64,000 nt of DNA from Candidatus Heimdallarchaeota archaeon (GCA_019057375.1 DXJF01000011.1:58922-122921), one strand, 5' to 3'. Shown: positions 10,051 through 39,622, numbered from the stretch's first letter. Translations and numbers: made by a program. Notes: a model not told the origin generated them from the sequence alone.

Positions 10051-10054
10051 AAAA

Positions 10055-10842: not shown

Positions 10843-10962
10843 GTTTCAGACAAACAATATATTACTCAAACGTATTTAAAACCCAAAAAAATTCTACTAT
10901 AACTAGCTTCAAAATTCACTTAACAACTATTTTTAGTTCACAAAAAATAGTTGTATATTAAC

Positions 10963-12619: not shown

Positions 12620-12830
12620 ACACATACTATGAAGCTCATCCAAGTTTATTATAACTTGAATAGTCTTGACGAGTAGTTATCTCGTTCCCCTCGTATGTGG
12701 AGAGGGGGAATTTGATTTTAACAATTGCTCACCCTTATCTTTTACATTTTTTGCTGCATTTATGTGAGTATTCACCATTTTACCACACTTTTTACATTTT
12801 GCGATGTCATAAGAACCAATTTTTCTTTCG
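12599..12830 (-). ncRNA. candidate omega-RNA (reRNA) of the TnpB-like gene, with its guide in 12599-12619
   Basis: By analogy with IS200/IS605 TnpB, the scaffold would overlap the gene's 3' end. Hairpins are CCCCTC/GAGGGG (12687-12707) and CAAGTT/AACTTG (12642-12659). Homology to the rRNA trailer begins abruptly at 12619. Confidence 0.3.
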
Positions 12831-19937: not shown

Positions 19938-20288
19938 TTATAAACTGAGTAAAACCATATTTACTATATCTGAATCTTGTTGGGTTTAAATAGATATTTT
20001 GCATTTCATTATTGAGATAGATGTTCGTAATTACATTCCTTAAGTCTTTAAGATCAAAGAAAAAAGGGGGACCTATTCTAGAAGAGATTCTACTTATTGG
20101 TATAGCAGTTCTTGTCTTTGCAATAATCTTTGCACTAATTTTTAGCTTAATAGATTGGTCTACATCTCCTTTTGAAGAACTTTTCAAGTGAAGAGTTTTT
20201 TCTTTCAATTTCAAGAAACTTAGACTTTTAGTGGGTTTATAAGGGGAATTACTATATTTTCTTTGAAGCTAGCAATACGCAAGATAAC

Positions 20289-20408
20289 ATTTTAGTCGAT
20301 GAACCTCTTTCTATAGCTAGCTTCAATATTTTTCTTAACAAGAATTTTTATTGTAAACCAAAATTAGCTGACAATAACTCTCCTAGAATCTGACGAACCA
20401 ATTTCCAT
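20289..20408. repeat. 23S rRNA 3' trailer (master copy of the repeats at 10055-10153 and 12599-12619)
   Basis: Direct comparison with the two repeat pieces. Confidence 0.9.
20364..20388 (-). promoter_or_regulatory. 23S processing-stem, 3' half
   Basis: Perfect 25-nt reverse complement of 24014-24038. Confidence 0.85.
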
Positions 20409-20749
20409 TTTTCCTAACTACGCTTGAGCAATTAGTGATTGTGGGCTAAACATCTCGCCGAAGCTCGACGCGTACACCCCAATTCTATCAACCGGATCTT
20501 CTTTCCGCGCTCTCATCTATATCGAAGGTTACTGTCACCAGTCCCCTTATAGTGATACAGAGTGGGTGACTCGTTTCGAGAGTAGCTTCGAGCGTTGATG
20601 CATTCCGCTCTTATCTACGAGGGCTTAGCTACCCGGCGATACCCTTTAGGATAACCGGTACACCAGAGGCCCCAGCCGCCTGTTCCTCTCGTACTGTGGA
20701 GACTTTACTCTCAATCACCCGCCAGCACCATCAGATAGAATCCAACCTG

Positions 20750-20904
20750 TTTTGCGTGAATTTAAGCCCGAGTATTGATCTTCGATAGAAGGGATTTCCC
20801 GTAAGGGGGGTTTACAACTATCAAAGACTTTTACATACTTGGATGAAGTTCAATTGAAGTATTACTACTATACTTCTACAGAACTCCACTATAGCTTAAA
20901 TCCA
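20750..20904 (-). other. about 155-nt AT-rich insertion (putative intron) in 23S, between GACCGTTGTGAGA and CAGGTTGG
   Basis: The universal GTGAGA|CAG junction is interrupted. The insertion ends pair with each other (ATTTAAGC/GCTTAAAT). Confidence 0.7.
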
Positions 20905-21052
20905 TCTCACAACGGTCTAAACCCAGCTCACGTTCCCTTTTAATGGGCGAACAACCCCACTCTTGGCGGCTGAATCACCACCAAGCTAGGAAGAGCCGAC
21001 ATCGAGGTAGCAAGCCGTGAGGTCGATGTGAACTCTTACCCACGACAACTCC

Positions 21053-21441
21053 GTTCAGGGCTGCGCTTGCGCTATGCGCACATCGGCTTTAAGGATCAGT
21101 TGTCACCTGGTATAACGACATAGGCAGTTACATAATCCTTAACCTTATCTTCATGTCCTCACGCTTATTTTTGGCTCTCCATCTTTCGTGTTTATTTAGG
21201 GATTTATCTATTCTAAATGGATTTGTGACAGAAATTAGATTCACTCTGCTCAAGTTTTGTAGCCTTTTAATGGCGAAAACTTTCGTTTCCTCACGTGGAA
21301 GAAAGACTGAAGCTATAATTAAATTCACTCAATTTTACTTTTCTGCCTCGGAAAAGATGGACTTTATCAATAAGCGTTACAGACAGAGAGCACTCTTTGT
21401 GATAAACAATCACTTCTTCGTGATAAACACTCAGAAGCGCA
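21053..21441 (-). other. about 389-nt insertion (putative intron) in 23S, after GGGGTAAC
   Basis: The universal GGGATAAC|AGG...AAGAGTTCACATCGAC block is interrupted. TGCGC/GCGCA pairing sits at the two junctions. Boundaries are accurate to within a few nt. Confidence 0.65.
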
Positions 21442-24013
21442 GTTACCCCTGGAGTAACTTTTCTGCCACCTCCGCCGCCTACTAATGGCACTGCGAAGGA
21501 TCGCTAGGCCCTGCGTTAACATCTGCGAACTGTATTGGTGAGTTCACAGTCAACCGAGCTTTTGCCCTTGCACTCTTCACCGGATTTCTGTCCCGGTTGA
21601 GCTCGGCTTTGGGCCCTCTTGATATCTTTTCAAGAGGCTACCGCCCCAGTGAAACTGCCAGGCAGGGGGTGTCCCCCTCGCAAGAGGTAAGTCGTACCAA
21701 TGCGCAAGGTCAGTATTTCAAGTTCGACTCCCCTACATCCCGGAGAATGTAGGATCAGCATCTCCTGACTATGCTATGCATGCACACCAATACAACAGCC
21801 CCTGACAGCAGTAAAGCTTCACAGGGTCTTCTCTTCCCGATGGTGCGCTCCAGACTGTTCGCTGGACTGTGGGTTCAGTAGGCTTCGGGTGGAGACAGTG
21901 GGCACCTCGTTGGTCCCTTCATGGACGTCTGTAATTAGCAGACAAGGCATTTGCCTACCTTAAGAAGCTCATAGTTAGCTCCGGCGTTTACTGGGTCTTA
22001 GCCTGGTTGAACCCAGGTTTCAATCACCAGCACCGGCCAGGATTCACTAACTGTACTAAGGCTTTCGCCCTTGCAGTTAGCTATGTTTTTATTAAACAGT
22101 CGGGTGCCCCTAGTCACTGCGACCTGGTAAGGCATACACCTTCCCAGGCATCCCTTATACCCAAGGTACGGGACTAATTTGCCGATTTCCTTCACCCGAG
22201 CTCCCCTAACACGCTTTAGCCTTCTAAGCTAGCCACACCTGTGTCGGTTCTGGGTACGGTCACGCGTAATCGTTCTCTTTGCTTTTTCATGGGCTGTTGG
22301 GGTTGATGGCAGCCAGCAACCTATGGCCGGCCTCTTCATCTATTCTTCTGGTTCTCACCTTAACGGTTCTTCCCAGAATTCTATAATTTAACTAGGATAT
22401 GCTCCTAGGCCACCTACCCACCAGCGTTAGCTCAGAGCTTGCGTCGCCGCGTCTATACGCGTGGTACAGGAATATGAACCTGTTTCCCTTTCGAACGACT
22501 CGTTTTAAGATCGTCCTTAGGACCGACTAACCCTTGGCTGACGAACAGTGCCAAGGAACCCTTGGGCTTTCAGCGATGAGGATTCTCACCTCACTATGCT
22601 CCTACTACCACCGAGATCTGCAAATCTAATCGGTCCACTGGGAATCACTCCCCAGCTTCTGCCCAACCAGATCGCCCCCCTACCTGAGACTCTTGCGGAG
22701 TCCAAATGGGTATCGGGACCCGGTTTAGCCCCGTCCATTTTCTGAGCCCAACAACTCGATGAGTAAGCTGTTACGCTTTTTTTAACGGATAGCTGCCTCT
22801 AAGCTTACCGCCTCATTGTCTTAGTCGTTGGACGTCATTCTGTTTAACATTTAACCGGGATTTAGGGCCCTTAACCCATTGTAGGGTTGTTCCCCTTTCG
22901 GCCATATCCCTTGCGGATACGCGCCCGTCTGTCGCCTTCTACAGCGCTTGCAAGTTCGGAGTTGGAAGGGAGGGTGAGGATTTCACTCCCCAGAACCTCC
23001 CGTCCGTAGCTCTACCTCACAAGCCGCCTTCAGCGACGCTATCCTGTGGTGATACTTCGGGGGGAACCAGCTATCAGCAGTTTAGATTGGTCTTTTGCCA
23101 CTATCCCCAACTCAGAGGAATGAATTGCATATCAATAACCCTTCAGGCCTCCACGCTCCTTTCGAAGCGCTTCACCTTGGTCAGGGATAGATCAACTGCT
23201 TTCGGGTCTTACACCTGTGACTTCACGCCCTTATCGGACGTCGCGCCTTGCCGAAGCTGCGCGCTGGTCGCTTTCGCTACGCCACCGTATTAACTTAGGC
23301 TTGCCACAGACATAAACTCCTCGGCCCGTGTTTCAAGACGGAACGGATAACTCTGGTCCTCTCAGCTCGTACTACCACCTCACGATGGGTTCCTTCACCG
23401 AGACTCTACCCTTTCAAGCCATCCACGTCTGTTACCATGTAGTTTCAGGGACTTTTCACTCTCGTATTTCGAATACTTTTCAACTTTCACTCACGTTACT
23501 AGTGCGCTATCGGTCTAGGGGAGTATTTAGGCTTGGGAGTTAGTCCTCCCATATTTGCGCGACAAATCCAAGCCACGCTAGTCTTGATACTACTAAGCCG
23601 AGCGCTTACGTTTACGGGGTTATTACCCTCTATGACGCCCCTTTCCAGGGGCCTTCAACTTCACGCTTTCGGTCTATGTTGTAGTCAAAACACCACATCT
23701 ACCTTAATTTTTCAAAAAAGGAATTCGGTTTGGCCTGTTCCGGTTTTACTCGCCGTTACTACCGGAATCACAATTGTTTTCTTTTCCTGCAGGTACTTGA
23801 ATGTTTTGGTTCCCTGCGTTCCCCGCCATTACTGGCTGTTACAGTTTATTAGACTGTAACCGGAAATCCGATTCGGGAATCTGTGGATCGTAGACTGTCT
23901 GCGTCTTCCCACAGCGTTTCGCCGCTTACCGCGCCCTTCATCGGCTCCCTAGCCGAGTCATCCACTACATGGCGTATGCATAGTGTAGGTTACTCTAGAA
24001 ATCAGTTTTCGCC

Positions 24014-24038
24014 TTCTAGGAGAGTTATTGTCAGCTAA
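24014..24038 (-). promoter_or_regulatory. 23S processing-stem, 5' half
   Basis: Perfect 25-nt reverse complement of 20364-20388. Confidence 0.85.
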
Positions 24039-24305: not shown

Positions 24306-24749
24306 GTGCTTGAGAACGACTCTTATTTGAGTTACATGAACCTTGATGAACATCTCTCCGAACTTAAACAACGTGCTGAAGAATCAAGTGTCAATGCTTT
24401 TGCTCCTTACAGTGATTTTATTATTGGTGCAGCTTTGCTAATGAAGAGTGGTAACATCTATACTGGATGTAATGTTGAGTTCTCAGATTATCTTGCTCTT
24501 CATGCTGAAGTTAATGCTATAGGGACAGCTATCAACAGTGGTGAAAATGATATTCAAGCTGTAGTAGTTTTTTCAAAAAGTTCACCACCTGTTCTACCTT
24601 GTGGATCATGTAGACAAAAATTATCTGAGTTCGCTCAGTTGAATAACCACGATATACAAGTGATTGCTTTTAACGATAAACAAGAGCAAATAGAGTTCTT
24701 ACTAAGTGAACTTTTACCAGGAGCTAAGATACAAGTAAATAAAAAATAA
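24306..24749 (+). CDS. cdd: cytidine deaminase
   Basis: CNVEF...HAEVNAI and PCGSCRQ zinc-binding motifs. The start is GTG at 24306 or ATG at 24333. Confidence 0.85.
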   Translation: MLENDSYLSYMNLDEHLSELKQRAEESSVNAFAPYSDFIIGAALLMKSGNIYTGCNVEFSDYLALHAEVNAIGTAINSGENDIQAVVVFSKSSPPVLPCGSCRQKLSEFAQLNNHDIQVIAFNDKQEQIEFLLSELLPGAKIQVNKK

Positions 24750-24754
24750 CTTAC

Positions 24755-24937
24755 CTATTCAATTATTTCGTAGTACATACAAGAGCCACATAACCAGAAT
24801 TTCTTAATTTCAGTTAAATTATAATCATCAGGAAGATAGTTCTCTCTTTTGATCATTAATGCCCCACATTTTGGACATTCTTTTTGTTCATCACTCATAG
24901 ACTTATCACATTCATCTAAACTTCTATACAAATGCAC
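24755..24937 (-). CDS. small zinc-ribbon protein
   Basis: CPKCG...CGSC in a 60-aa protein. Confidence 0.45.
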   Translation of the reverse strand: MHLYRSLDECDKSMSDEQKECPKCGALMIKRENYLPDDYNLTEIKKFWLCGSCMYYEIIE

Positions 24938-25511
24938 ATTAATATTTTACGAAAGTCCTAGCGGAATCATTTGATTTTTAGGCTAGTAAAAACCCATTCT
25001 AAGCCTAGGTTGAAGAATGAATATAATTGGATTTGAGATCTATATACTACGAGTGAAATAACCCTTTTCTTCCTTCCATTTGGATTTTAAAAGGGGCAGT
25101 CAAACATTATTAGAGACATACAAACAAAACATGATTATTAACAGAAATATAGAAGAAATTCAGAAGAGGAAATTAAAGGAAGGACCCTTTGTGTAAGATT
25201 AAAGCTGTCATTGCTTTAGTTTTTTCCCTTTTGATTTGTTTTGCGATTGTCTCAAGAGTTTTTGCGTTCTTTTCCATTTTTTGCACCTATCCTAACATAA
25301 GCTCTCCTTTTAAAATAGGTTAACCACAAGTTATGGTCACAAGTTGTGTCATAATCGCGAAAAAAATGATTGTAAAAAATCTTACCACACAATTATAATT
25401 TTCTGTGGTAAGATACATCTAATGACTTTTGGGGGGGTTAAATTCTGATTAACAAAACCCTCCTTTTCATCAATCCTTATAAATCGCTACTTCACACAAC
25501 ATGCGTTTATC

Positions 25512-25847
25512 ATGAAAGAAGTATTTCCGGAAGCAATAAGAAAACTACCTGAAGCAGATATTCCCATACAAGGACTTACAGCCTTTTTATCCCAAGATAA
25601 GAATCATCAAATTGTCTTTATGCATTTCAATCAAGATGTAGAAGTTCCCGCACACTCACATGGAGCTCAATGGGGAATTGTGCTAGAAGGGGAAATAGTA
25701 TTAACAATAGAGGACAATGAACAAAAATATACTAAAGGAGATCGTTTCTATATTTTGGAAGGAGAGACACATTCCGCAGAAATACATGCAGGATATGCTA
25801 GCATGGAATTTTTTGCAGATAACGATAGATACAAAGCTAAGGAATAG
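25512..25847 (+). CDS. cupin-domain protein
   Basis: HSHGAQWGIVLEGE...GETHSAE cupin motifs. Confidence 0.75.
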   Translation: MKEVFPEAIRKLPEADIPIQGLTAFLSQDKNHQIVFMHFNQDVEVPAHSHGAQWGIVLEGEIVLTIEDNEQKYTKGDRFYILEGETHSAEIHAGYASMEFFADNDRYKAKE

Positions 25848-25859
25848 AGATAAATTAAT

Positions 25860-25940
25860 TTAAGCTGGTGACCAAAATGGTGGAGTTATGCTTTCGTCGC
25901 CATCTTCAGGATCGTATTTCGGTTCATTCATCATGTTCAT
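25860..25940 (-). CDS. acidic mini-protein, family copy 3 (26 aa)
   Basis: MNMMNEPKYDPEDGDESITPPFWSPA*. The upstream block 25941-25998 aligns with those of copies 1 and 2 (ttggggtgctttaatagc...cctttcctgag). Confidence 0.5.
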   Translation of the reverse strand: MNMMNEPKYDPEDGDESITPPFWSPA

Positions 25941-26017
25941 CTCAGGAAAGGTTATCATTTTAGTTAGACAAAGCTATTAAAGCACCCCAAAGAAAAGACT
26001 GACAGTTACAGCTATTT

Positions 26018-26172
26018 CTGATTGGAAGAGTTGGCTAATAGATAATTGGCTTGATGAGTTTGAAAGATTAAAACCTTATTTTCTTAATTCAGAGCAATTA
26101 TGACAACTAAAAAACTCCAAGGAATACAAGAACCCCGAGAGAAAGATTCTACAGAAGTAGAGAAATAAGGGG
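26018..26172. repeat. degenerate copy A of [giant-ORF 3' end + 16S trailer stem half]
   Basis: Frame fragment ...DNWLDEFERLKPYFL compares with INWLEEFEKLKEYFF at 35213-35257. The core ccaaggaatacaagaaccccgagagaaagattctacagaagtagagaaataagggg compares with 35287-35345. Confidence 0.75.
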
Positions 26173-26264
26173 TGAAAGAACGAGTTTTATTAAATAGAAA
26201 TTGTAAAAGTTGTTTCAAATGTTGTGCTTAGAAACAATTTTGAAGATTATATAAAATATCAAGG

Positions 26265-29200
26265 TTAATTTATGTTTTCAACATATTTTATTATTTCATG
26301 ACTTATCATGTAACTTATTCTTTTTCCAATACCATCAATTAAATTTGACATAAAAATATCTCCTGCGTATGTATCCTCCATAATCTCAAGAATCAAAGAT
26401 GGATTTATATGGTGGAAGATATCCAATAGAATTTTTGGATTGTAATTGCTTTCTACATGGGTTGCTGCATATGTTAACCAAAGAACATCCTCTTTATTTC
26501 TGATTAATTGCACTAAATTTGGTATTAATTTTATAGCTATATCTTCTTCTAAGCCTGCAATTTCTAGAAAAGGATAAACTACCGTATCAAATGAATAATC
26601 ATAATTTAGTATAATTGATTCAGAATTAATTTTATCTATTAAAAATACAGTTAGATCTTTGTTAAATACACATAATCCTTTGATAAAATGAAACAAATCA
26701 ACAATATTCCATTTATCTTCTAGCTTATTTTTAATAAAATCAGAATCAAGTATAGAATTTATATCTAAAAGAAGATCGTTTTTTGCAATATATCTCAGAG
26801 AATACAAAGTAACACCAATGTCATGAAGATCTTTTTCCGTTTTTATTTTTTCATAAAGAACATCCTTATCTAGTAATACAAGTATTCGAGAAATTAAATC
26901 CTCAGAAAAAAGTGATGCACTACTCAAAAGACATTTAACACCAATTAAATCTTCAGAACAATTAACTTTTTCAACTAAATTCTTAATATTTTTCTTGTTC
27001 AATACAAGATTAATTGAGTCTGTTTCACCTAAAAAATCTAAAATTATCTCTATCTGAGACAAGTTTGTTTCAGAGTCAATTCTTTTCGTAAAATAATCAA
27101 AAATTCTTGTTTTTTTGATATTAAACTGTTTGTTTTTTCCTAAGTTATAATAAAAAAGTTTATTCATGAAATTAATAAGATGAATAAAATCTTCATGCTC
27201 TATTGTTTTACTCAAAATGATAGATTTTCCAATGATTCCAGAGGCTATCTTAGCTAGATTATAATTTTGGTTGATTATAGTACTAAGAAAAGAAAACGAA
27301 CTATCAGGCAATATCCAGTTTATTCTCTTCAAAATTTTTCTGATTTTAATTTTCCTAAGAAATATTCTTATATTTTTATTACTCATTTGCCAAAATAAAG
27401 ATTCAATACTTTGTACAAACATCTTGCAATCTATAACATTTTTGAATTTCTTAATAAGAATATTCAGATATTCTTTTTGGTACTTCGAAATGATGAATCT
27501 TTCATAAAGCATTGTTATAAAGTATAAATCTTCTTCGTACTTCATGCTTTCTAATAAATATTTCATAATCTCTCCGTCGCTAAGAAGATAATCAACAATA
27601 CCTTTGGTATTATCATTCATAAGAAATTTCAAAATTTTAATTTTATAATCCTCATTTGAGTGAAGTATGTACTCTTTGAAGAGATTAAAATCATCCTCGT
27701 ATCTTTCACCAAGTAAAAGTCGCAAATTATAGGAAATGCAATTTGAGAATTTTATTGCAGAATAATAGAGCTGTGCAACAGATTGATGTGACAGAATATA
27801 AGTAATCTGAAAATAAGCACTACCAATGTGATGAATGTTGTGTTTTTCGTATAAATTCCAAACGTTTGATATATGGACTATTTCTACTGGATAGTATAGC
27901 AAATGTTCAATTATTTCATGCTTTTCTAACAAATATTCAAGGATATGATTATGAATTTTTAAATTCTGAATTAGATAATTTTTCTCAACCCTAATATTAT
28001 GTTTGGAGAATACAGATAAAATAAATACACAATCATAAAATTGATCAAGCTCTTTATGATTAAAAACTTCATCTAGACTTTCAAGTATATATTGATAGAT
28101 TTCCTCTTCATGAACTTCACATTTTTCATGATCTATTGAGTTTAGAGCAAATTCTAACAACCACAAATCTTGCCAATACTTACTCAATTGAATTTGAAGT
28201 TTAGAAAAGTTATTATGATTTCGCAAATTAGAATCATTCGGTATATGTTTTTTTACGATTTCTTCAGCAATTTCTTCAGCTGTAATTTTTAATATGGGAT
28301 TTCTCTCAAATTCAGAATTTCCTCTTATTTTGAATTCAATAAGTCTTGTTCCTGCAAGTACCAAGCTTTTTGAAGACGCATTATGTAATTTACATATGTT
28401 ATTAAAAGAATTGAGATTTTCATGAATATCATCAAGAATTATTAATGGTTCTTTTCTATCATATAGAAGTATTTTGCAAAGTTCTTCTATTTTTTCACGA
28501 TTTTCTTCCTTAAAACTCAGATAATATACTGGTCGTTTTTTTGCCAATATAAAACCCACGTGCTTCAAGAATACAGATTTTCCTGATGCTGAATCACCTA
28601 AAACTATAGTTCTTTTCTGTTTTTCCAATTCTTGAATGCATTCTTTAAGTACTCTTCTTTCAACTATTTTTCCTTCCTCAAAATTTGACCAAACAGGTAT
28701 TTTTTGTTTACTTTCAAAAACCTGATCTTTCCTTAAAACATGCTCAATCGAGTTTTTTTCTATTTCCAAATATATGTATGAACTAGATCCCTTCTCTCTC
28801 AAGTAATCATGTATAATATGTTTCTTAATTGTCGTTCCTTTACAATAATTTTTAGAATTAATGTGACCAAGAAAGTATCTTATATTGCTTTTGTTTGTTT
28901 GATATCCATATTGTTCAGCAATTTCTATTATATGATCTTCTAGTGAATCAAGTTGGATACATTTGAATTCTACTTTTTTAATGAAATCTGATAGAATATC
29001 AACTGTTATTTTACTACCAAACATTTCAGAATAATTTTCCGGAATAATTTTACATATATCCGATAGTTCTTCTTTTGGTATTATAATTTTTGAATCTGAA
29101 AAAAACTCATCTTTGATAGGTATATTACTATAAAAAACGAAAGTCTCAACTCCTTTTGAACGAACCAATAATTGAAGCAAAGGACCTCTTTTTCCTGAAT

Positions 29201-29402
29201 AGAAAAGTTGTTTTGGAGTCCAGCTACTGCTGCTTTGGATACTTTTAGCTTCCCCAATGCAGATTTTTCTTCCGTTAGTATAAAAAGAACTGTCTTCATA
29301 GTTTTTTTCTATAGAAAATTCATCATATTTGTTTGATAGAATATGGTATAGTGCAGTTAAAATTTGGTAATTAAATTTATGTCCAAGATGCTCATCTATC
29401 AT
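26265..29402 (-). CDS. large P-loop NTPase (STAND-like) with N-terminal Cap4/DUF4297-like nuclease domain and helical C-terminal region
   Basis: The N-terminus has GHKFNYQ...FSIEKNYED...ICIGEAKS (D/E...E-x-K). Walker A is LGDSASGKSVF and Walker B is LIILDDIHE. The C-terminal region is about 600 aa and alpha-helical. Confidence 0.6.
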   Translation of the reverse strand: MIDEHLGHKFNYQILTALYHILSNKYDEFSIEKNYEDSSFYTNGRKICIGEAKSIQSSSSWTPKQLFYSGKRGPLLQLLVRSKGVETFVFYSNIPIKDEFFSDSKIIIPKEELSDICKIIPENYSEMFGSKITVDILSDFIKKVEFKCIQLDSLEDHIIEIAEQYGYQTNKSNIRYFLGHINSKNYCKGTTIKKHIIHDYLREKGSSSYIYLEIEKNSIEHVLRKDQVFESKQKIPVWSNFEEGKIVERRVLKECIQELEKQKRTIVLGDSASGKSVFLKHVGFILAKKRPVYYLSFKEENREKIEELCKILLYDRKEPLIILDDIHENLNSFNNICKLHNASSKSLVLAGTRLIEFKIRGNSEFERNPILKITAEEIAEEIVKKHIPNDSNLRNHNNFSKLQIQLSKYWQDLWLLEFALNSIDHEKCEVHEEEIYQYILESLDEVFNHKELDQFYDCVFILSVFSKHNIRVEKNYLIQNLKIHNHILEYLLEKHEIIEHLLYYPVEIVHISNVWNLYEKHNIHHIGSAYFQITYILSHQSVAQLYYSAIKFSNCISYNLRLLLGERYEDDFNLFKEYILHSNEDYKIKILKFLMNDNTKGIVDYLLSDGEIMKYLLESMKYEEDLYFITMLYERFIISKYQKEYLNILIKKFKNVIDCKMFVQSIESLFWQMSNKNIRIFLRKIKIRKILKRINWILPDSSFSFLSTIINQNYNLAKIASGIIGKSIILSKTIEHEDFIHLINFMNKLFYYNLGKNKQFNIKKTRIFDYFTKRIDSETNLSQIEIILDFLGETDSINLVLNKKNIKNLVEKVNCSEDLIGVKCLLSSASLFSEDLISRILVLLDKDVLYEKIKTEKDLHDIGVTLYSLRYIAKNDLLLDINSILDSDFIKNKLEDKWNIVDLFHFIKGLCVFNKDLTVFLIDKINSESIILNYDYSFDTVVYPFLEIAGLEEDIAIKLIPNLVQLIRNKEDVLWLTYAATHVESNYNPKILLDIFHHINPSLILEIMEDTYAGDIFMSNLIDGIGKRISYMISHEIIKYVENIN

Positions 29403-29670
29403 ACAAATATCATCTTTTTTGTTTATTTCAATAAAGTTTGAAATTAAATATCGAATTCAACTTAATCTATATGTTATTTTTTACAAAGCTACTTAAATGC
29501 TTTTTTTTCTATTGGTAAAGATGAAAAATTAATATTTATAGATAAATGGAAACCTTTTGAAGATTTTGAGAGAAATATGAATAAGTTGTTAGAAACTCTA
29601 GAAGTATTAATTTAAGATATCATATTGAGAGAAATATAAGTAAAACCTGAATAAGTTAATTATATAGATA

Positions 29671-29868
29671 TATGGATGAATGCTAATTTGTTGGAAGAAT
29701 TTACTTCAATTAAACATTATTTTTACTAAAATAAATTTCAAACTATGAAGAATAAATACCCCCAAATAATACAAGAACCCCGAGAATAAGATTCTACAGA
29801 AGTAGAGAATAAAGGGTTGGGGTTGGGAAGTCTTGAAAACTTCCGAACGTAGGAGGTGATCCATCAGC
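29671..29868. repeat. degenerate copy B of [giant-ORF 3' end + 16S trailer + last about 25 nt of 16S]
   Basis: It carries WMNANLLEEFTSIKHYFY*, the core ccccaaataatacaagaaccccgagaataagattctacagaagtagagaataaaggg, and ccgaacgtaggaggtgatccatcagc. The last compares with ccaaacgtaggaggtgatccatccgc at 35425-35450. Confidence 0.8.
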
Positions 29869-29911
29869 TTTGAATTAAAAATTCCTTGGGGTTTAACAAT
29901 GCAAGTTTATA

Positions 29912-30223
29912 TTAAATATCAATGTAACAGTTCCTGATAAGAAAATGCTTGGTAGTTGAGGTAATATGGATTCCAAAGGAAGTGCTAGACGTAATATTGT
30001 AGTTCTCAATCAAGTAAGGATCTTCATATGTACCTGAACCTGGAAAAGCTAAGAAATCTTCATCTGAAGTAATCTCTATAGGGTCATGGTTTGTAAGATA
30101 ATTAGTGTTATTAGATTGGTTAGCTTTAGTTTCTCCGTCAACAGTAATTGTTACAGAAACTAAAAAACAAAGTAGGATAAGTGTTCTTCTACATCTAGGG
30201 GACATAGTATTCTCTAGATTCAC
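29912..30223 (-). pseudogene. N-terminal fragment of a secreted right-handed beta-helix protein
   Basis: A signal-like N-terminus is followed by DPIEITSDEDFLAFPGSGTYEDPYLIENYNITS...GIHITSTTKHFLIRNCYI, which resembles the first coils of NosD/pectate-lyase-like proteins. The frame ends after 103 aa, next to repeat B. Confidence 0.4.
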
Positions 30224-30316
30224 TTAATTATTCTATATAAACCAGCAAGAAATTATTCAATACATTTTGGTTTTACCACGTTTTTAAGTCATTTTAATTA
30301 TAATAACTCAGAAACA

Positions 30317-33300
30317 ATGAGAAACAGAATTTGGCTTTGTAAAATCCTCTTATTGGCTAGCATACTTTGTGGAGGCTTTCTTCTAATTAACAGTGAGGTT
30401 GAAGCTGAACCAGGATTAAGAGATGTGACAACCAATGCTTTATTACCTTATGATATTAATTTTGAATTTAACTTCTCTGGCAGTGAAGAAGTTTATAATT
30501 TGCATTCAAATCAAATTGAATTAGGAGAACTAAATAAACTCACACTTTCTTTCCGAGTAAACGGTATGAGCGGTTCTCCAGGATTAAAAATAGTGTTCAT
30601 TTTCATGACTATTAAAGTTGGATTTGTTGTTGACCGAATTTTTAATGATGATACTTTACACAATTTAACTGAGACTTTTCTTTTTCCTCACAACTATTCA
30701 GGTAGTATGGATATTACTGTCATTTGTAGTGGTAGTTCAACTTCTACAAGAAATGGATTTCTTACCATATTTAATAGCACTAAAATAGAACAAATGAATA
30801 TTCCCACAATATCAGAGGATTCTTTTTCTCTTCCAACTTCCCAGGATTGGGTGATGTTCAAAGGTAATATATATTCTTGGAATAGAGGAGGAATTACATC
30901 TGCTTTTTACAATTACGATGAAATGGCACTAGTAAGTCTTAACATATCCTTCTCTTCAAATTATTTTCAGTCAATAGAAAATGTAGTTGAAATTTCTTTA
31001 AATGGTAATTTTGTTGCAGAAGATTATTTCATTGAAGATTTAAGTAATAATATTGATATTCAATTTCAACCTGAAATAGGTTTGAATCTCTTATCATTGA
31101 ATTTCTCTGTTTCTTATTCCTTTAATCCAATTTATATTTCAAATATCTCTCTTTTTGGCTCTCTTTTTAATTATGAATCTAGCAGTTCTACTTCAGATTC
31201 ATTTAGTTGGGAAAGTGGTTTTTTTTCCTACTCTTTTGATTTATCTACGTTAAAACCCCCTGGGTACTATTCAGAACAAGTTCTTCACTTAACAATCAAT
31301 TACCAATGTTTCGGAATGAAAATCTCTTCAGGAATAAACTATTTTCTAAAAATAGGGACATCTATTCTCGAGGAAGGAACCATAAGCTATCTCGAGCAAA
31401 TGTATGAGAATAATAGTTTAAAGATCGAGACCTTTACTACGGAATATCACAACCCTCTTACGTTTAAAATTTTCGGCACTTCGAATGGGGTGGGAGGACT
31501 TACTATTTTAAATTCAAGTACGATTGAAATATCTCACATAGGTGAGCTAACAAAACAACCTTTGAGTAGAACCATAGCAGATGAAAGAAGTGTTAATGGT
31601 CCTTCTCTTGCTGTTTCGCTTAGTTTTTATGATGTCTTTCAAACTTATAGGATTGCAGCTCCTGTACAATTAGCTGTTAATTTTAATACAGTTTCTACTT
31701 ATGAACATCCCTTTGATTTACTTACAGTAACAGTCAAAATTGATGGTGTAAGAGTAATATCAAAAAATGTTCATATTCTCGGTTTTGCAAATTTTAGTAA
31801 AGAATTTTCCTTAGAACATGGGTATCACGAAGTTAGAATAAATTTCCAATTTTCTGGCATTAATACTCCTCTCACAGTAGAACAATTGAAGTACCAACTA
31901 GCTTTACAAATTGAAGAAGAAATTACTGTCTCAACAGCACTCTCTTATGCTCGTCAATCAACATTCTATCTTCTAGCCTTTTACGCCCTCCTCTATGTCC
32001 TTCTAGATGTTAAAGAAATAAATCGAGAGAGAATCAAGGAAAAAGAAAGTTCTATTCGTGAAGATTCTATCGAAGATGCAAATGATGACTCTAGGAATTT
32101 ATTACGTACGGCTCTCATGGTTGTTGTAAATATATCTATTAATTTGACTCCTTCTGTTTTCTTCTTGTTGCATGGAATTAATTACTGGTTTATTTTACCC
32201 TTAAGCTTCTTTGTAGCTTTACATTTCAGTATCAAAATTCTCTTTTCGAATTTTTCGAAAGATGCAATAGTTGGGTTTTGGAACAAAACAAGAGACTTCT
32301 TTAGAGATATCTATTCCCTCTCAGGCTTTCTTAATAAAGTTACAAGATCATTCGGAAAACTCTCTTTTAGAAGCTTAACTAGATTATTGGTCTTCGCTAT
32401 AGCTTTTCTGAGCTTTGGCTTATTGTTTTTCTTGGCAGATAATATTCCTTCAAATGCTGTCAAGGAAGTCTGGATTGTCTATGCTCTTTTGCTAGTTTGT
32501 ATTGTTATATCCTCTCTTACTTTATTCTACACCCTTCATTTAGTTAGAGACATGGCTTTTATAGAGGACAATCTGAAAAGAATAAAGAGGTTAGGTTATG
32601 CTTCCATCACACTTGTTGCTGGTTTTCTATTTGTTCTTATCAGCATGTTAGGCACTAAACTCAGTCTTTCAAGCATCTGGGGTTTCCTTTCTCCAATCCT
32701 CCTTTTTGGTATTTTTCGTACAACAACTAAACTAGGAAAGATTTCTGCCAAAGAAGAAAAGCTCTCCTTTGACGATTTTCTGGATAAAGGAATGTTCTTC
32801 ACTGATAAGAAGGAGATGCGAAAAGCTGTCAGTTTTGGTATCAATACTCGCTCTACTTGGGAAAAGAAAGGGTATGAACTCCAGAAACATCAGATAAAAG
32901 GTGTTATCGCTTACGATTACAACCCTGGAGATAAGATCAATCTCTATGAACTGGCTGAGAAGATTAAACTCCCCTTTAAGAAAACAGAGGAACTTGTTCA
33001 GGAGATAGAAAAAGAAGTTCCTAGATTAGGAAAATATGACCCTCAATCTAAAATCTATACCAAGAGCAAAGAGAATATTATAGAAGCTCAGGAAATTCAG
33101 GAAAAAATTGTTCCAGATAAATATGAAAATGAAGAAAAGAATGTAGAGATGAGTAAAATACCAACAAAGAATATTTCTACAAAAGAAAGATTTCAGAAGC
33201 TGCTTGAAGAGGTAGTAGGAGAGAGTGACGAGGAGAAGAGGAGAACTCTAGAATATGTGAATCATTTGACAGCTAAAGAAGCGGAAGTATATCAAAAATT

Positions 33301-35260
33301 CTTGAAAAAGGGATTGGGAGACCAAGATATAGTCATAACTAATTCTGACAGAGAATTTTTACAAAGAGCATGGAAGAAGATACATGTTCAAGAAGATATT
33401 TTTCAAAGAAACAGTTCTAGCAATTTGCTGAGGGAATATTATGATAAGATATCAGATGCTCACAACGGTTTTGATGATGTTGTGTTTGAGATAAAAAAAG
33501 AATTATTCAAAATATCCTTTTTGGAGTATAAAGTAGGTGATCGTGCAACTTACTATCCTTGGGAGTATATTCCTAAATTTGGATATCATTTGCTACGTAG
33601 AGAATTAAATGAAAAACAACTTCTTAAGTACATAGAAAAAAACCCAATAGTTGAATCTCTTTTTTCATCTCAATCAAATTTGGGGAAAAAGAAAGTTCCT
33701 TTAATCATTAGAAAGCTATACTACGACAGAAACAGGCAGTATCATATCATTGGAAATGATTGGTTAGTCAAATTCATGAATGGAGACTTTCAGAATGCTC
33801 TTTCTCATTTAGTCACTAAAGGTCTACTAACAAACAAACAGAAAAAGAGAATTACTGTGGGATTATCGGAATTTAACCAATTGGTAGGTTTAGCTCAGAA
33901 TGGACACACTTTTCGAGTTTTCGATAATACGAAAAAAATACAATTAGAATCTTGTGCAGAAATAACATTAGGTGGAAAACAAATTATCTTATACCACGAT
34001 TTCTTTTTACCTAAGTTTGAGATTAATCAAGAAAAAATCAGCATAAGTCTTCAAGGTTTTAATAAGATAACAACTTCTAAACACAATCAATTGAACCTGC
34101 TAATTAAGAAAGAATACTTCCTCAGAGACGATCAAGAGGACAAGATTCTTGTTCTCTATGCTAAACTTAAAAGAGAATTTCTTTTAGATTTGATAAAATC
34201 TAAATTAATGGACCATTTACAGGTTTTATATGATAAAAGATATATTTCTGGACTTGATACAATTACATCATCAGATTTTATTCCGTCTATTGATAAATTA
34301 AAAAAGCAACCCACAAGACAGAGGGGTATAGTTTGGTTTTATGATGATATTCAAGTTTCACCTATTGATTTTCTTACTAACAAAAAATTCAAAGAAATTC
34401 TACAGGAAAAAGATGAAGAATTGCTATTTTCTAAATTAGCTTCATTACTAAGTGACACTGAAACTTTTTTTGAAGACGAAGGTAGAAAGCAATTTTCTAT
34501 AGCTTATGAAGCCTATAAGAATGGACATTTCGATTTCTTTCTTTTTAATCAAAGTGTTAATGAGATCTATAAACCTCCTACTTACTCTTTTAGGCAAGGT
34601 AATATTCCTAAAACTGGTGTTATATTAGTTGACCACAACAATAGAATAATCAACTTAATTTCCCCCTCAAAAGCTGTTAGTATTCTACTAGAAGAGGGTG
34701 ATATATTGCTTAACTTTCCTTTTAGATGGGATTCACACTATGGTTATTTTGCATTCACCCAAAAAGGAAATAGAATGAGTAATGTTGCCAAGTCTTGGTA
34801 TGATTGGTTGATTAAGGCAAATCTTCCCATTCCTTCAGGTTCCAGTGGTAGAATTCCTGATATATCAGTAATTGCAATGTTACTAGAGTGGTGGACAAGG
34901 CAAGAAAATTTTGTTATCAATAGGATTCTTTCAAACCAAGTTTTTATTGAGAGTTGTAGGAAACACAAAATTGTGGTTGATAAAGATTCTACAATGGTTA
35001 TTGATTCAAAAAAGAATTCTTACAAACTTGCACGAGTTTCTGTTACTCAAACAGGAAATATTAGACATAAAGAAAATTGGAAATATTACGCGTTTTATAA
35101 TGACAAAATACGCACAGTTATTGATGTTCTTAAAGCTGCAATTTTTGATTTAGTTTTACAGAAAGGCAATATTTCTTCCGCTCAAATACCTGATTTGAGA
35201 AATTGGTTGAAGATAAATTGGTTGGAAGAATTTGAAAAACTGAAAGAATATTTCTTTTGA
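30317..35260 (+). CDS. giant (1647 aa) surface/membrane protein, paralogue of 17220..19937, with a unique cytoplasmic region of about 800 aa
   Basis: It has a signal peptide. The homologous ectodomain shows SFDLSTLKP vs SFDLSSLKP and LNSSTIEISH vs LNTSTIEIEP. There are 8-10 TM helices. I recognised no domain in the C-terminal half. Confidence 0.7.
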   Translation: MRNRIWLCKILLLASILCGGFLLINSEVEAEPGLRDVTTNALLPYDINFEFNFSGSEEVYNLHSNQIELGELNKLTLSFRVNGMSGSPGLKIVFIFMTIKVGFVVDRIFNDDTLHNLTETFLFPHNYSGSMDITVICSGSSTSTRNGFLTIFNSTKIEQMNIPTISEDSFSLPTSQDWVMFKGNIYSWNRGGITSAFYNYDEMALVSLNISFSSNYFQSIENVVEISLNGNFVAEDYFIEDLSNNIDIQFQPEIGLNLLSLNFSVSYSFNPIYISNISLFGSLFNYESSSSTSDSFSWESGFFSYSFDLSTLKPPGYYSEQVLHLTINYQCFGMKISSGINYFLKIGTSILEEGTISYLEQMYENNSLKIETFTTEYHNPLTFKIFGTSNGVGGLTILNSSTIEISHIGELTKQPLSRTIADERSVNGPSLAVSLSFYDVFQTYRIAAPVQLAVNFNTVSTYEHPFDLLTVTVKIDGVRVISKNVHILGFANFSKEFSLEHGYHEVRINFQFSGINTPLTVEQLKYQLALQIEEEITVSTALSYARQSTFYLLAFYALLYVLLDVKEINRERIKEKESSIREDSIEDANDDSRNLLRTALMVVVNISINLTPSVFFLLHGINYWFILPLSFFVALHFSIKILFSNFSKDAIVGFWNKTRDFFRDIYSLSGFLNKVTRSFGKLSFRSLTRLLVFAIAFLSFGLLFFLADNIPSNAVKEVWIVYALLLVCIVISSLTLFYTLHLVRDMAFIEDNLKRIKRLGYASITLVAGFLFVLISMLGTKLSLSSIWGFLSPILLFGIFRTTTKLGKISAKEEKLSFDDFLDKGMFFTDKKEMRKAVSFGINTRSTWEKKGYELQKHQIKGVIAYDYNPGDKINLYELAEKIKLPFKKTEELVQEIEKEVPRLGKYDPQSKIYTKSKENIIEAQEIQEKIVPDKYENEEKNVEMSKIPTKNISTKERFQKLLEEVVGESDEEKRRTLEYVNHLTAKEAEVYQKFLKKGLGDQDIVITNSDREFLQRAWKKIHVQEDIFQRNSSSNLLREYYDKISDAHNGFDDVVFEIKKELFKISFLEYKVGDRATYYPWEYIPKFGYHLLRRELNEKQLLKYIEKNPIVESLFSSQSNLGKKKVPLIIRKLYYDRNRQYHIIGNDWLVKFMNGDFQNALSHLVTKGLLTNKQKKRITVGLSEFNQLVGLAQNGHTFRVFDNTKKIQLESCAEITLGGKQIILYHDFFLPKFEINQEKISISLQGFNKITTSKHNQLNLLIKKEYFLRDDQEDKILVLYAKLKREFLLDLIKSKLMDHLQVLYDKRYISGLDTITSSDFIPSIDKLKKQPTRQRGIVWFYDDIQVSPIDFLTNKKFKEILQEKDEELLFSKLASLLSDTETFFEDEGRKQFSIAYEAYKNGHFDFFLFNQSVNEIYKPPTYSFRQGNIPKTGVILVDHNNRIINLISPSKAVSILLEEGDILLNFPFRWDSHYGYFAFTQKGNRMSNVAKSWYDWLIKANLPIPSGSSGRIPDISVIAMLLEWWTRQENFVINRILSNQVFIESCRKHKIVVDKDSTMVIDSKKNSYKLARVSVTQTGNIRHKENWKYYAFYNDKIRTVIDVLKAAIFDLVLQKGNISSAQIPDLRNWLKINWLEEFEKLKEYFF

Positions 35261-35286
35261 TATTCAATTTGGGTGAAATAAAAAAG

Positions 35287-35338
35287 CCCCCAAAGAATAC
35301 AAGAACCCCGAGAGAATGACACTACAGAAATAGAGAAT
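35287..35338 (-). promoter_or_regulatory. 16S processing-stem, 3' (trailer) half
   Basis: Complementary, with an internal loop, to 37051-37106. Confidence 0.75.
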
Positions 35339-35431
35339 ATAAGGGGACTTCTTTCGAAGCCAGAGTTGGTCATAACAAGGCCTAAAAACAGGCCCTGCAT
35401 GATCAAGGAATCCTTGAAGGATTCCAAACGT

Positions 35432-36942
<1,511 letters not shown>

Positions 36943-37050
36943 CCTGATTCGATTATGATACGATCTATTTGCTATCTTCCATGAATTGAACTATTTTAGC
37001 GCACATACACGTACTAGTGTTTTTGTACATACTAAATTTTGTTCCTTAAA

Positions 37051-37106
37051 ATTCTCTAAATTTCTGTAGCATCAGAACATCTCGGAGTTCTTGTTTTCCT
37101 TGGAGG
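37051..37106 (-). promoter_or_regulatory. 16S processing-stem, 5' (leader) half
   Basis: Complementary to 35287-35338. Confidence 0.75.
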
Positions 37107-37945: not shown

Positions 37946-39622
37946 ATGCTAGATACTGAAGAGTTTCGAGAAAGAAAAGAAAGAATTTTTCAGAATATTG
38001 GAAGTCTTAATACTTTATCTGATCTTAGTGACCATGTCTTGGATTTAGAACTCGTTTGTGCAAACGAAAGATCTTTGGAATTAGCGAACATTCTGAAGAA
38101 GACTATAATTGTAGCGAAAGAAATTGAGAATAATAACCTTTTGTATAAGTCATATAGACTGTATTTTCAGCAAATATTTTCATATGTTCAGAGATTGGAT
38201 GAGGCTGAAGAAATAGTTAATTGCATGCAAACAATTGCAGAATCAAGTAATAACATAGAACATGAATCTCTTGTTTATTTTTCAAAAGCTCTTCTAATTA
38301 GAATTCATGGACTAATTGAAAAATCTGATGAACTTACAATTAAGGCAATGAGAAAAATAGAAAAAGGAAAGAAAATTTATCCCGATACATATTACCGTAT
38401 TCTTTTTACTTATAATATGTTTATGTGGTATCGTGATAATGATTTTCCAGATGTTTTTTCTAATGTAGAAAAATGTGTTTCCTATTGGAAAGATACGTAT
38501 CACACTTTACCTATGATTACAGGGATATTCAGATTACTTAGATTGTACATATTTTCAGGTAATAGTGAAAAATTTAATAATTTAATGCAATGGATATTTG
38601 AGAAGGAAAGAATACAAGATAATTTAATTGATTATCATTTCACATTACTATATTCCTTCATTGGTCGTATCCAAGCAATTCGATTGAATATCGACAAGGC
38701 TATAGATTTTTTATCTGAAGCATATCATAGAGTAATTTCTTCAAAATCTGAAGATATAATGATGTACGAATATATTGAAATTCAGAAGTTATTGTGTAGA
38801 AGCTATGCATTTAAAGGAGAATTTCAAAAATCTTATCAAATCCTTATTGAGTTTCTAAATTTCGTTGAAAGTGATTTTGTTAAGCAGAATTATCAAACTT
38901 CAATGGTAAAAAGACTGTATTTTGGTGTATATTATACCCTGTTGTTTATTTTTGCTCAACTTGATGTTAATATTGATAATATAGCAGATACTCAGCTAAA
39001 GAGAATACACAATTATACAAAGAATCTTCTTGAAAAATCAAGAATTTCAGAGGATTTACTAATAAGCAATTCTTTAGATGACAAACAATTGGATAAAATT
39101 AAAATAGAAAAAGATAAGAGACCTGTTGAGTTTGATTTATCTCTGTATCAACAGTTAAATTCTCTTAAGACACAAGCTGCTTCTGAAAATACAGTTAGTA
39201 ACATAGAGTATCTGAGAGGTTATGTTTACAACCCCTTATATGCTGACATAATTTTGGGAAAGATTCATCTTTCCATTGGTAATTTTAGAGAATTTAAGAG
39301 TATAGTTAAACAAATGGAAAATAAGGAAAAAGAAGCTGATACTCCTGTTTTGATTCTTTGGATAAAACTATATAGGTTGCTGTTTGAATACTTAGAAGAT
39401 CCTGGAAATAAAGTGATATTATCAGAGTTTAGAAAATTGGAATCTTACTGCAAGAAAAATAATTTCATCAAGATGTCAGAAGAAATTAACTTATACTTCA
39501 AACTAATAACTTCAACAAAAACAATCAATAACTTAACTCAAAAATTCCAACAAACAGCTTTTACTGATATTTATAATAAACAGTCAAAAAGAATGGTTGT
39601 TGAATATCTTGATAGTAAATAA
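37946..39622 (+). CDS. hypothetical all-helical (TPR-like) protein
   Basis: 558 aa with helical-repeat-like composition and no catalytic motif that I recognised. Confidence 0.55.
   Translation: MLDTEEFRERKERIFQNIGSLNTLSDLSDHVLDLELVCANERSLELANILKKTIIVAKEIENNNLLYKSYRLYFQQIFSYVQRLDEAEEIVNCMQTIAESSNNIEHESLVYFSKALLIRIHGLIEKSDELTIKAMRKIEKGKKIYPDTYYRILFTYNMFMWYRDNDFPDVFSNVEKCVSYWKDTYHTLPMITGIFRLLRLYIFSGNSEKFNNLMQWIFEKERIQDNLIDYHFTLLYSFIGRIQAIRLNIDKAIDFLSEAYHRVISSKSEDIMMYEYIEIQKLLCRSYAFKGEFQKSYQILIEFLNFVESDFVKQNYQTSMVKRLYFGVYYTLLFIFAQLDVNIDNIADTQLKRIHNYTKNLLEKSRISEDLLISNSLDDKQLDKIKIEKDKRPVEFDLSLYQQLNSLKTQAASENTVSNIEYLRGYVYNPLYADIILGKIHLSIGNFREFKSIVKQMENKEKEADTPVLILWIKLYRLLFEYLEDPGNKVILSEFRKLESYCKKNNFIKMSEEINLYFKLITSTKTINNLTQKFQQTAFTDIYNKQSKRMVVEYLDSK

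Follow-up and report, generated by a model that had tools for sequence, protein, structure and literature searches.

Archaeal ribosomal RNA (rRNA) precursors fold into a leader–trailer helix that is cut by the splicing endonuclease, giving circular pre-rRNA intermediates, and to our knowledge such a processing stem occurs once per rRNA gene. Stable-RNA genes are also classic landing sites for islands, with the 3′ ends of transfer RNA (tRNA) genes being used by genomic islands. In Asgard archaea, rRNAs have been reported to circularise (PMC12918454), and the available passages of Wu et al. 2022 (PMC8813620) place the elements HeimM2 and HeimV2 of Ca. Heimdallarchaeum precisely in the gap that separates the 16S gene from the gene that follows. 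The locus described here lies in 64,000 nucleotides (nt) of a Candidatus Heimdallarchaeota archaeon (GCA_019057375.1, DXJF01000011.1:58922-122921), referred to in full as the window. Within it, the 3′ flank of the 16S rRNA gene is present as three direct copies, A, B and C, which delimit two cassettes of accessory genes. Copy C adjoins the 16S gene and is the working trailer, and copies A and B are termed orphans.

The window has a G+C (GC) content of ~31% and is archaeal, of Heimdallarchaeial (Asgard) type. The 23S gene (20412–23989) and the 16S gene (35432–36942) are both on the minus strand and are separated by 11.4 kb. The 16S gene is an archaeal small-subunit gene (Rfam RF01959, 1294 bits) present in single copy in the window. 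About 20 contigs of Heimdallarchaeial metagenome-assembled genomes (MAGs) are matched by an 18-mer from the repeat, and the window 16S gene is 92–96% identical to those of the MAGs matched in this way, which include AB_125. At the gathering threshold, Rfam matches in the window were limited to the two rRNA genes (23S and 16S) and one tRNA, and copies A and B match no known RNA family. Five assembly records (ENA, JGI, NCBI and two Logan runs), which represent at least three datasets, contain the A/B/C arrangement at 99.6–100% identity; the coordinates of the ENA and JGI contigs coincide, so these two could be a single assembly. The Logan contigs span the trailer repeats and break at other places. 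Cassette-free population variants were sought by exact-protein look-ups with the deaminase, the giant protein and the pyrophosphatase, and these returned the same arrangement only.

The three copies and the 16S processing helix

The core of copy C (35286–35347, minus strand) is followed in the rRNA sense by a T-run (35280–35285). Between this core and the 16S gene lies the inner trailer (35348–35431, minus strand), which is composed of 6 nt, a conserved hairpin, GGAATCCTTSAAGGATTCC (35407–35425), and a 59-nt "long-form" insert (35348–35406) that is missing from copy B and from the orphans of relatives. Over 17 nt, part of the insert (35390–35406) closely resembles (88%) the start of the 16S gene (36919–36935, TTGATCATGCMGG...), and as the rRNA matures this stretch might compete with the 16S 5′ end for its pairing partner. 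Copy B (29673–29868, minus strand) has the short trailer form and reads, in the rRNA sense, 16S 3′ end, ACGTTC, hairpin (29826–29844), core (29760–29819), degenerate T-run and coding tail B. It retains AGGAGGTGATCCATC, the last 15–20 nt of the 16S gene (29851–29868). Copy A (25981–26174, minus strand), the presumed ancestral flank, has no inner trailer, hairpin or 16S end; its core (26115–26174), T-run and coding tail A remain. Copies A and B have an identical 22-nt inner segment, AAGATTCTACAGAAGTAGAGAA, which is found in no working copy of the comparison set.

By self-blastn, A and C are 75% identical over 161 nt (26018–26172 versus 35190–35346, E 2e-16), A and B are 82% identical over 79 nt (E 2e-15), and B and C are 84% identical over 69 nt plus 84% over a further 43 nt (29826–29868 versus 35407–35449). 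The 16S-flank copies are 71–89% alike overall, with cores at 86–89% and the adjoining tails at only 64–70%. Local-alignment scores among the copies are 57–65, against a mean of 11 and a maximum of 20 for mononucleotide shuffles (z-scores 28–34) and at most 22 for ~500 random windows of the same low-GC sequence. The 18-mer, AAWACAAGAACYCCGAGA, occurs four times (A, B, C and the 16S leader) versus 0.03 expected. A sequence-only reading of the window had described three direct copies of a coding tail plus a 16S-trailer core, and these are far above chance even when low GC is allowed for. The brackets it drew are also correct, with A and B flanking a 1045-amino-acid (aa) NTPase gene and B and C flanking a beta-helix fragment and a 1647-aa gene. 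The age of the copies is not readable from their identity, because the cores were constrained before orphaning and may have undergone gene conversion, and dating by divergence was given up.

The fourth occurrence of the 18-mer is on the opposite strand at 37080–37097, inside the 16S leader. The leader strand of the processing helix (37045–37105, minus strand) is an inverted repeat of core C (complementary region 35288–35347) and also pairs with A and B. Leader and trailer together fold at −73 kcal/mol (z −9.9; shuffles about −25 to −35), and the duplexes with the window leader are predicted at −75.3 kcal/mol for C, −68.6 for A and −63.4 for B. Across eight genomes, 20 of the 49 helix pairs have compensatory changes on both sides, and the hairpin between the 16S 3′ end and the core covaries between lineages and is kept in most orphans. 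The minimum-energy fold has an asymmetric internal loop (leader UGUUC / trailer UU) at the expected bulge-helix-bulge place, with no clean 3-4-3 structure. Because of the leader complementarity, the fold energy and the covariation in eight genomes, the repeated core is identified as the 3′ strand of the pre-16S leader–trailer processing helix. The earlier designation of this part as a 16S trailer was correct and takes on this more precise meaning.

At helix column 50/99, the window leader and trailer C form an A:U pair, and A and B both have a C. This base pairs with the G-type leaders of HMA_bin2.96 and of the related contigs L036, L118 and L107 (contigs are given by our L numbers). As judged from the alignments, A and B were not copied from the present trailer C, since B has the short form, A has no inner trailer, both have a C in column 50/99, and AAGATTCTACAGAAGTAGAGAA is in no working copy. 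The short form, column 50/99 and AAGATTCTACAGAAGTAGAGAA, together with the duplex energies and the low-GC NTPase block that lacks homologues, favour the import of diverged junctions, or very old junctions, over a recent duplication of the present unit.

The unoccupied site, the giant-gene tails and the cargo

Relatives contain the site in an unoccupied state. In L107, the order is 16S, trailer, small open reading frame (ORF), deaminase and 23S leader, and the rRNA genes are ~1.7 kb apart. In L110, which is 92.5% identical to window 25002–25850, the order is 16S, trailer, small ORF, a broken 530-aa gene and cupin, and L111 likewise leads from 16S and trailer to cupin. The window counterparts come after copy A: the small ORF (25860–25958, minus strand; 24–32 aa, MMNEPKYDPEDGDESITPPFWSPA), which truncates tail A and directly follows the 16S trailer in relatives, and the cupin (25512–25847) and cytidine deaminase (24306–24749) genes, both on the plus strand, which are conserved neighbours and form the old downstream edge (24306–25847). 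Since the trailer of relatives adjoins the small ORF and cupin or deaminase, as A does in the window, copy A is best interpreted as the old flank, and 26175–35431 (~9.3 kb) as added material in two layers. The search of related genomes for empty and occupied sites thus gave three of the former, and further trailer copies were found in at least nine contigs. It had been proposed from the sequence alone that the 16S 3′ flank was reiterated around cargo, and this is upheld by the unoccupied state in relatives and by giant-gene alleles of L117, L118 and L119 that end in tail A or B by the 16S trailer. Such accretion offers a route to the unlinking of 16S and 23S genes, which are 1.7 kb apart in relatives and 11.4 kb apart here with the cassettes.

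The 1647-aa gene (30317–35260, plus strand) runs convergently toward the 16S gene and encodes a membrane protein for which Pfam gave no hit. The N-terminal 550 aa of its product are homologous to a 905-aa protein encoded beside the 23S trailer. Tail C consists of its last 18 codons (WLKINWLEEFEKLKEYFF) and the stop codon (35204–35260, plus strand). Tail B (WMNANLLEEFTSIKHYFY and stop, 29673–29729) is within copy B, and tail A, an open frame ending in SDWKSWLIDNWLDEFERLKPYFLNSEQL and a stop (25981–26103), is within copy A. Over 26 codons, tails A and C have eight identical codons, six synonymous differences and 12 non-synonymous differences, the synonymous ones including the Leu codon-family switches TTG/CTA, TTG/CTT and CTG/TTA. 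Because six of the 26 codons differ synonymously only, such switches included, the two tails have diverged as coding DNA. The frame of tail B is open for ~20 codons only; an 80-codon extension was rejected as too weak (24% identity, E 0.013, with stop codons inside).

Intact giant genes that end in the other tails are present in relatives. The product of P0002 (L117) is 74% identical to the 1647-aa protein, and the first 3.6 kb of its gene are 95.7% identical in nucleotides to the window gene. It ends in SDWKSWLMDNWLDEFERLKSYFFNSEQL and a stop, which is tail A, and is followed by the core (L117 5467–5584 versus window 26012–26128, 95% nucleotide identity). P0003 (L119) ends in NWLEEFSTIKHYFY.. 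and P0005 (L118, a contig with a G-type leader) ends in NWLEEFNSIKKYFY and a stop; both are B-type tails, and both genes run into the working trailer and the 16S gene. In L009 and L110, the codons KHYFY plus stop are retained just past the working trailer, as read directly from the sequence. Tails A, B and C are therefore true C-termini of giant-gene alleles. Since intact giant genes elsewhere end in tail A or B, some of them at the 16S flank, copies A, B and C are alleles of a single chromosomal junction, of which this genome has three stacked together. The description of the repeats as the 3′ end of a giant ORF holds for the gene family, which is the same at each copy, and fails for the cargo between A and B, which is an unrelated NTPase. 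Three further proteins from other Heimdall MAGs (P0006–P0008, e.g. L120 10001–14380) are N-terminal homologues of the 1647-aa protein, and their C-terminal region contains two LAGLIDADG-like motifs, YFGCYYADGT and LFGILEGDG, which were read by eye.

The cargo between A and B is a 1045-aa STAND NTPase gene (26265–29402, minus strand). This block has a GC content of 25–28% versus about 31–33% elsewhere, and a k-mer-prefiltered search of 5.8e9 proteins returned no homologue besides the query. Between B and C, the giant gene is accompanied by a 103-aa remnant of a NosD/beta-helix gene (29912–30223, minus strand). A longer version of this B–C module is present in L051 (C4.bin.14), where an orphan trailer with ~20 nt of 16S is followed by an S8 peptidase gene, three genes (470, 305 and 269 aa), the full-length NosD/beta-helix gene (385 aa) and a giant gene (79% identity). 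As the beta-helix gene is full length in this longer module, the window must have lost ~6 kb at that gene later on. The A–B and B–C cargoes are mutually unrelated and not paralogous. No integrase, transposase or homing endonuclease was identified by Pfam and PADLOC in the window cassette ORFs or in the tested ORFs of L051, L048 and L009, and the sole nuclease-like gene nearby is a TnpB/Cas12f-like ORF of the 23S cassette. A 558-aa protein beside the 16S leader (37946–39622) was considered as an integron-like recombinase and rejected, having no Pfam hit. It is a distant paralogue of a 530-aa family described below (23% identity, E 1e-6), and a HerA-like ATPase gene is next to it. A 23-nt AT-rich match (26243–26265 versus 29903–29925, 87%) lies over the stop codons of the genes that, in the rRNA sense, precede A and B and may be due to chance.

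Arrays in relatives and the 23S flank

The at least nine related contigs with extra trailer copies include L048 with five (period ~2 kb), L091 with four, L009 with three, and L109 and L095 with two each. Orphan copies are also found in L051 and L028/L078, and a single one in L104. Most orphans start with 2–22 nt of the 16S 3′ end, immediately past the stop codon of the preceding gene. The length of 16S kept is 15–22 nt in window copy B, L051 and L104, ~15 nt in L028, 11–12 nt in the arrays and 2–5 nt in some others, with none in copy A; the L009 orphans keep just 22 nt of the core. The usual array unit contains 2–12 nt of 16S end, the hairpin, the core, the T-run, a 24-aa small ORF and a 520–535-aa TPR-like gene. 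The paralogues within arrays are 41–43% identical, with the last ~70 codons and the repeat near-invariant. At least 138 members of the 520–535-aa family were found, and every named match belongs to a Heimdall or Asgard MAG, one of them filed as Thorarchaeota. In L121, where 530-aa genes lie away from 16S, they are still followed by a T-run and by the core's outer 22 nt. These 2-kb arrays look like the outcome of unequal crossing-over and gene conversion.

The L104 contig (Ga0114922_10125192) is a 2,191-nt metagenome contig with an exact terminal overlap of 123 nt, which gives a unit of 2,068 bp. This unit contains one 620-aa ORF with an HD-like motif, together with 22 nt of 16S, hairpin, core and T-run, and represents a circular molecule or, alternatively, a tandem repeat that has been collapsed.

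The small ORFs form a family of 24-aa products (MMYEPKYDPE[DG]GDE.I.PP.W.P) with a conserved upstream region of ~60 nt. Copies in the window are located at 9690–9764 and 9976–10050 on the plus strand and at 25860–25958 on the minus strand. In relatives they precede most members of the 520–535-aa family, and the window keeps the small ORFs without a 530-aa gene. When window 9003–45000 is compared with L107, the block from the 558-aa gene through 16S to 23S is found inverted relative to the pyrophosphatase and PEPCK genes, and small-ORF copies lie at both of its borders. The window 16S gene also has an insertion of ~31 nt within helix 45 (region 35445–35490). In seven relatives (L016, L033, L036, L054, L106, L111 and L118), CTGCGGA and TGGATCACCTCCT are separated by another 31-nt insertion, a hairpin of different sequence, 13 nt from the 16S 3′ end, which is the place of the 11–12-nt orphan boundary in the 2-kb arrays.

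The 23S flank exhibits a parallel arrangement. The working 23S trailer (20283–20411, minus strand), of which 20364–20388 pairs perfectly with the 23S leader at 24014–24038, has a distal direct copy (10049–10153, minus strand) that is 96% identical to 20283–20387 over 105 nt. A third, partial copy (10897–10964, minus strand, 76%) is situated between a 523-aa and a 203-aa gene. The 23S-trailer repeats that had been reported near 10055 and 20289 are therefore real, with one further member. The 10.1-kb block that they bound contains six co-oriented genes, encoding proteins of 106 aa, 905 aa (RING), 819 aa (SIR2-TPR, related to pAgo-associated SIR2; 14713–17172), 633 aa (TnpB/Cas12f-like; 12677–14578), 523 aa (DUF4379 zinc-finger repeats; 10963–12534) and 203 aa. 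At 96% over 105 nt, the 23S repeats are still a good substrate for homologous recombination. The phenomenon thus extends over both rRNA genes and at least nine related contigs, with a defence-like cargo of STAND NTPase, SIR2-TPR and TnpB/Cas12f-like proteins. It also matters for annotation, as orphan trailers are easily confused with small RNAs, attachment sites or assembly errors; the MAG contigs L051, L061 and L117 end near the 16S trailer, and the Logan contig L126 ends inside a 23S trailer copy.

Origin of the repeats and comparison with known systems

That the 16S flank grew by accretion is well supported. For the process itself, serial accretion of diverged junction alleles through recombination in the conserved rRNA flank, of Campbell type and by host enzymes, is the explanation placed first here, with about an even chance of being right. 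We infer the order of events, the circular intermediate and the involvement of host recombination as follows. The ancestor would have had the order 16S, hairpin, core, T-run, possibly a giant-gene tail, small ORF, cupin, deaminase and 23S, with copy A as its residue. B-type junction DNA (16S 3′ end, hairpin, core and tail B) would then have entered between the 16S body and flank A, and its giant gene would later have been lost or replaced by the NTPase gene. In a third step, a module combining the beta-helix and present giant genes with the long-form trailer C would have entered between the 16S gene and B. Each entry may have involved a circularised fragment or cassette with a copy of the flank, integrated Campbell-style by host homologous recombination, which would regenerate a working trailer beside the 16S gene and displace the old copy outwards. 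The processing helix, conserved across the clade, could in this way offer DNA of foreign or allelic origin a common point of entry. Recombination in the flank is favoured because no integrase, transposase or homing endonuclease is present in the cassettes examined and the orphan boundaries vary, and the model would explain the regenerated trailer, the outward position of the old copy and the orphans that start with a piece of 16S after the preceding gene.

Several observations weigh against this account. No excision or integration product was found for the window, all five assembly records having one arrangement, and A, B and C are too diverged, at 71–89%, for crossovers to be placed. The identity of A and B over the 22 nt of AAGATTCTACAGAAGTAGAGAA, despite their different tails, requires gene conversion or a shared origin. 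In L009, the second unit has tail A (100% over 105 nt) and is nevertheless not outermost, so a simple stacking with the newest unit next to 16S fails in places. The arrays of relatives consist of paralogous 530-aa genes and are better explained by unequal crossing-over, and L104 could be a collapsed tandem repeat with no circle. Finally, in HMA_bin2.96 and 8H_bin2 the pairing of orphan cores with the leader of the same genome nearly matches or equals that of the working copy, so that recent copying, gene conversion or selection fit there as well as import does.

The foremost competitor is in-situ tandem duplication of the giant-gene 3′ end, trailer and 16S end, followed by divergence, gene conversion of the cores and the deletion or overwriting of two giant-gene bodies. 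This is a possible but rather unlikely origin for the window. Relatives do contain tandem arrays of ~2-kb paralogous units (16S end, hairpin, core, small ORF and 530-aa gene) that share a boundary, (G)GATCACCTCCT, 11–12 nt from the 16S 3′ end in L048, L109, L091 and L095, and in which gene ends and trailer copies are homogenised around gene bodies of 41–43% identity; the inner core shared by A and B would also fit. The cargoes of the window (NTPase; beta-helix plus giant gene) are, however, unrelated and not paralogous, and the tails differ by many synonymous and non-synonymous changes, with tails A and B matching 16S-flank alleles of other lineages. In helix column 50/99, copies A and B have the state suited to a different type of leader, and the trailer of B is of the short form. 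The L117 gene, so similar over its first 3.6 kb and yet ending in tail A, looks like allele exchange at one locus. The proposal of serial duplication and decay of a giant gene–16S unit, as made from the sequence alone, is for these reasons not borne out for the present unit.

A second alternative is that elements similar to aloposons or HeimM2 used the 16S 3′ end or trailer as an attachment site, through a tyrosine recombinase or homing endonuclease of their own that these old insertions no longer contain. We consider this doubtful. In its favour, window B, L051 and L104 begin 15–22 nt inside the 16S 3′ end and adjoin different cargo, and the P0006–P0008 proteins end in the double LAGLIDADG-like motif read by eye. 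The 31-nt insertion of relatives lies 13 nt from the 16S 3′ end. The giant-gene 3′ end is on the attachment side, as it is for aloposons at tRNA genes, and HeimM2, with a homing-endonuclease homologue, and HeimV2 directly follow 16S in Ca. Heimdallarchaeum, according to the available parts of PMC8813620. Against it, no integrase, transposase or endonuclease domain was detected in the A–B and B–C cassettes or the tested ORFs of L051, L048 and L009, the boundaries vary (15–22, ~15, 11–12 or 2–5 nt, and none in A), the copies are 71–89% alike with no identical attachment cores, and the aloposon hallmarks (tandem genes of 3000–6000 aa and a ParA-containing block of four genes) are lacking. Repeated site-specific integration, the other mechanism that had been suggested, is not supported in that form, given no integrase or recombinase, the divergence of the copies and the differing boundaries (15–20 nt of 16S in B, neither a 16S end nor the hairpin in A).

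It is improbable that the orphans persist as functional RNA or DNA, with candidate roles in terminating transcription of the co-oriented gene upstream or insulating it, or as alternative pairing partners or decoys of the 16S leader; this would account for maintenance, not origin, and can be combined with any other explanation. The cores are far better conserved than the tails, a T-run follows each core (degenerate in B), the post-16S hairpin is present in most orphans, and the outer 22 nt of the core plus T-run stand after 530-aa genes away from 16S in L121. Pairing with the own leader is strong (−63 and −69 versus −75 kcal/mol), and is equal or nearly so in HMA_bin2.96 and 8H_bin2. Constraint before orphaning and gene conversion explain the conservation equally, though, and B has lost its T-run and has pairing-breaking changes, A has lost the hairpin, and L009 orphans retain 22 nt of core only. 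Chance similarity in AT-rich DNA or an assembly artefact can be set aside almost entirely, since, although GC is ~31% and repeats can mislead short-read assemblers, the alignment scores and 18-mer count are far outside expectation and the arrangement recurs at 99.6–100% identity across the five assembly records, which come from at least three datasets, with Logan contigs crossing the repeats.

Serial accretion in the rRNA flank could be extended, speculatively and with little likelihood in our estimate, to an integrase-free cassette system on the rRNA flanks of Heimdallarchaeia, in which one or a few genes are joined to a mimic, ~100–130 nt long, of the 16S or 23S 3′ end, hairpin and processing-helix strand, and circles re-enter at the trailer. 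If so, units would loop out, as L104 may show, and insert at the conserved trailer in their own or a related cell. Defence and surface genes would gather in the array behind each rRNA gene, and orphan strands might still pair with the leader and so link cassette RNA to the processing or circularisation of rRNA.

Compared with the archaeal processing stem, the repeat core corresponds to the 3′ strand of the 16S helix, and 20364–20388/24014–24038 to the 23S helix in the same way; the difference is that here further copies of the 3′ strand lie as far as 9 kb off and have no leader to partner them. Integron arrays resemble the arrays of relatives, which have mostly co-oriented single-gene units, each with one structured repeat (hairpin plus core), by a fixed platform, and the L104 unit closes on itself, as a circle or a collapsed tandem repeat. 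The present arrays differ in that no IntI-type recombinase gene stands beside the platform and an rRNA-flank copy takes the place of attC; the paralogy of many units in relatives suggests duplication, and the window cassettes are multi-gene or anti-oriented. Tandem arrays formed by unequal crossing-over have paralogous neighbours, as in L048 and L009, whereas the A–B and B–C cargoes are unrelated. With homology-facilitated illegitimate or Campbell-type integration, the locus shares a conserved rRNA anchor that admits diverged DNA and is duplicated, with no enzyme of the element. We know of no description of homology-driven integration at archaeal rRNA trailers, which is proposed here.

HeimM2, HeimV2 and the aloposons, as presented in the available passages of PMC8813620, belong to the same archaeal class; HeimM2 and HeimV2 are inserted right after the single 16S gene, and a giant-gene 3′ end is directed toward the RNA-gene side in both cases, which is the tRNA gene used for attachment there and, by analogy, the 16S trailer here. 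The present locus is from another clade (AB_125 relatives) and has no homing endonuclease in the window cassettes. It has one 1647-aa gene in place of tandem giant genes of 3000–6000 aa, and no ParA in the window or among the L051 upstream genes, where aloposons have four upstream genes including a MinD/ParA ATPase. Those passages do not mention a reiterated rRNA trailer, and in the literature searched for Asgard rRNA-trailer repeats or rRNA-flank islands, HeimM2 and HeimV2 were the only precedent found.

A further likeness is to islands at tRNA and transfer-messenger RNA (tmRNA) genes, in which the direct repeats are the 3′ part of a stable-RNA gene and downstream DNA, as with AGGAGGTGATCCATC in copy B. 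The working copy is by the gene body with displaced copies outward, the cargo is accessory or defence-like, and relatives have empty sites. The target here is instead the last ~20 nt of an rRNA gene plus the trailer, no integrase is present, and the window repeats are 100–200 nt long and diverged, with non-uniform boundaries and no identical attachment core. The rRNA trailer, or processing-helix strand, is not a recognised hotspot bounded by repeats. The locus is a variant of the island-at-stable-RNA-gene theme, in which the hotspot is a strand of the rRNA processing helix and which recurs across an Asgard clade.

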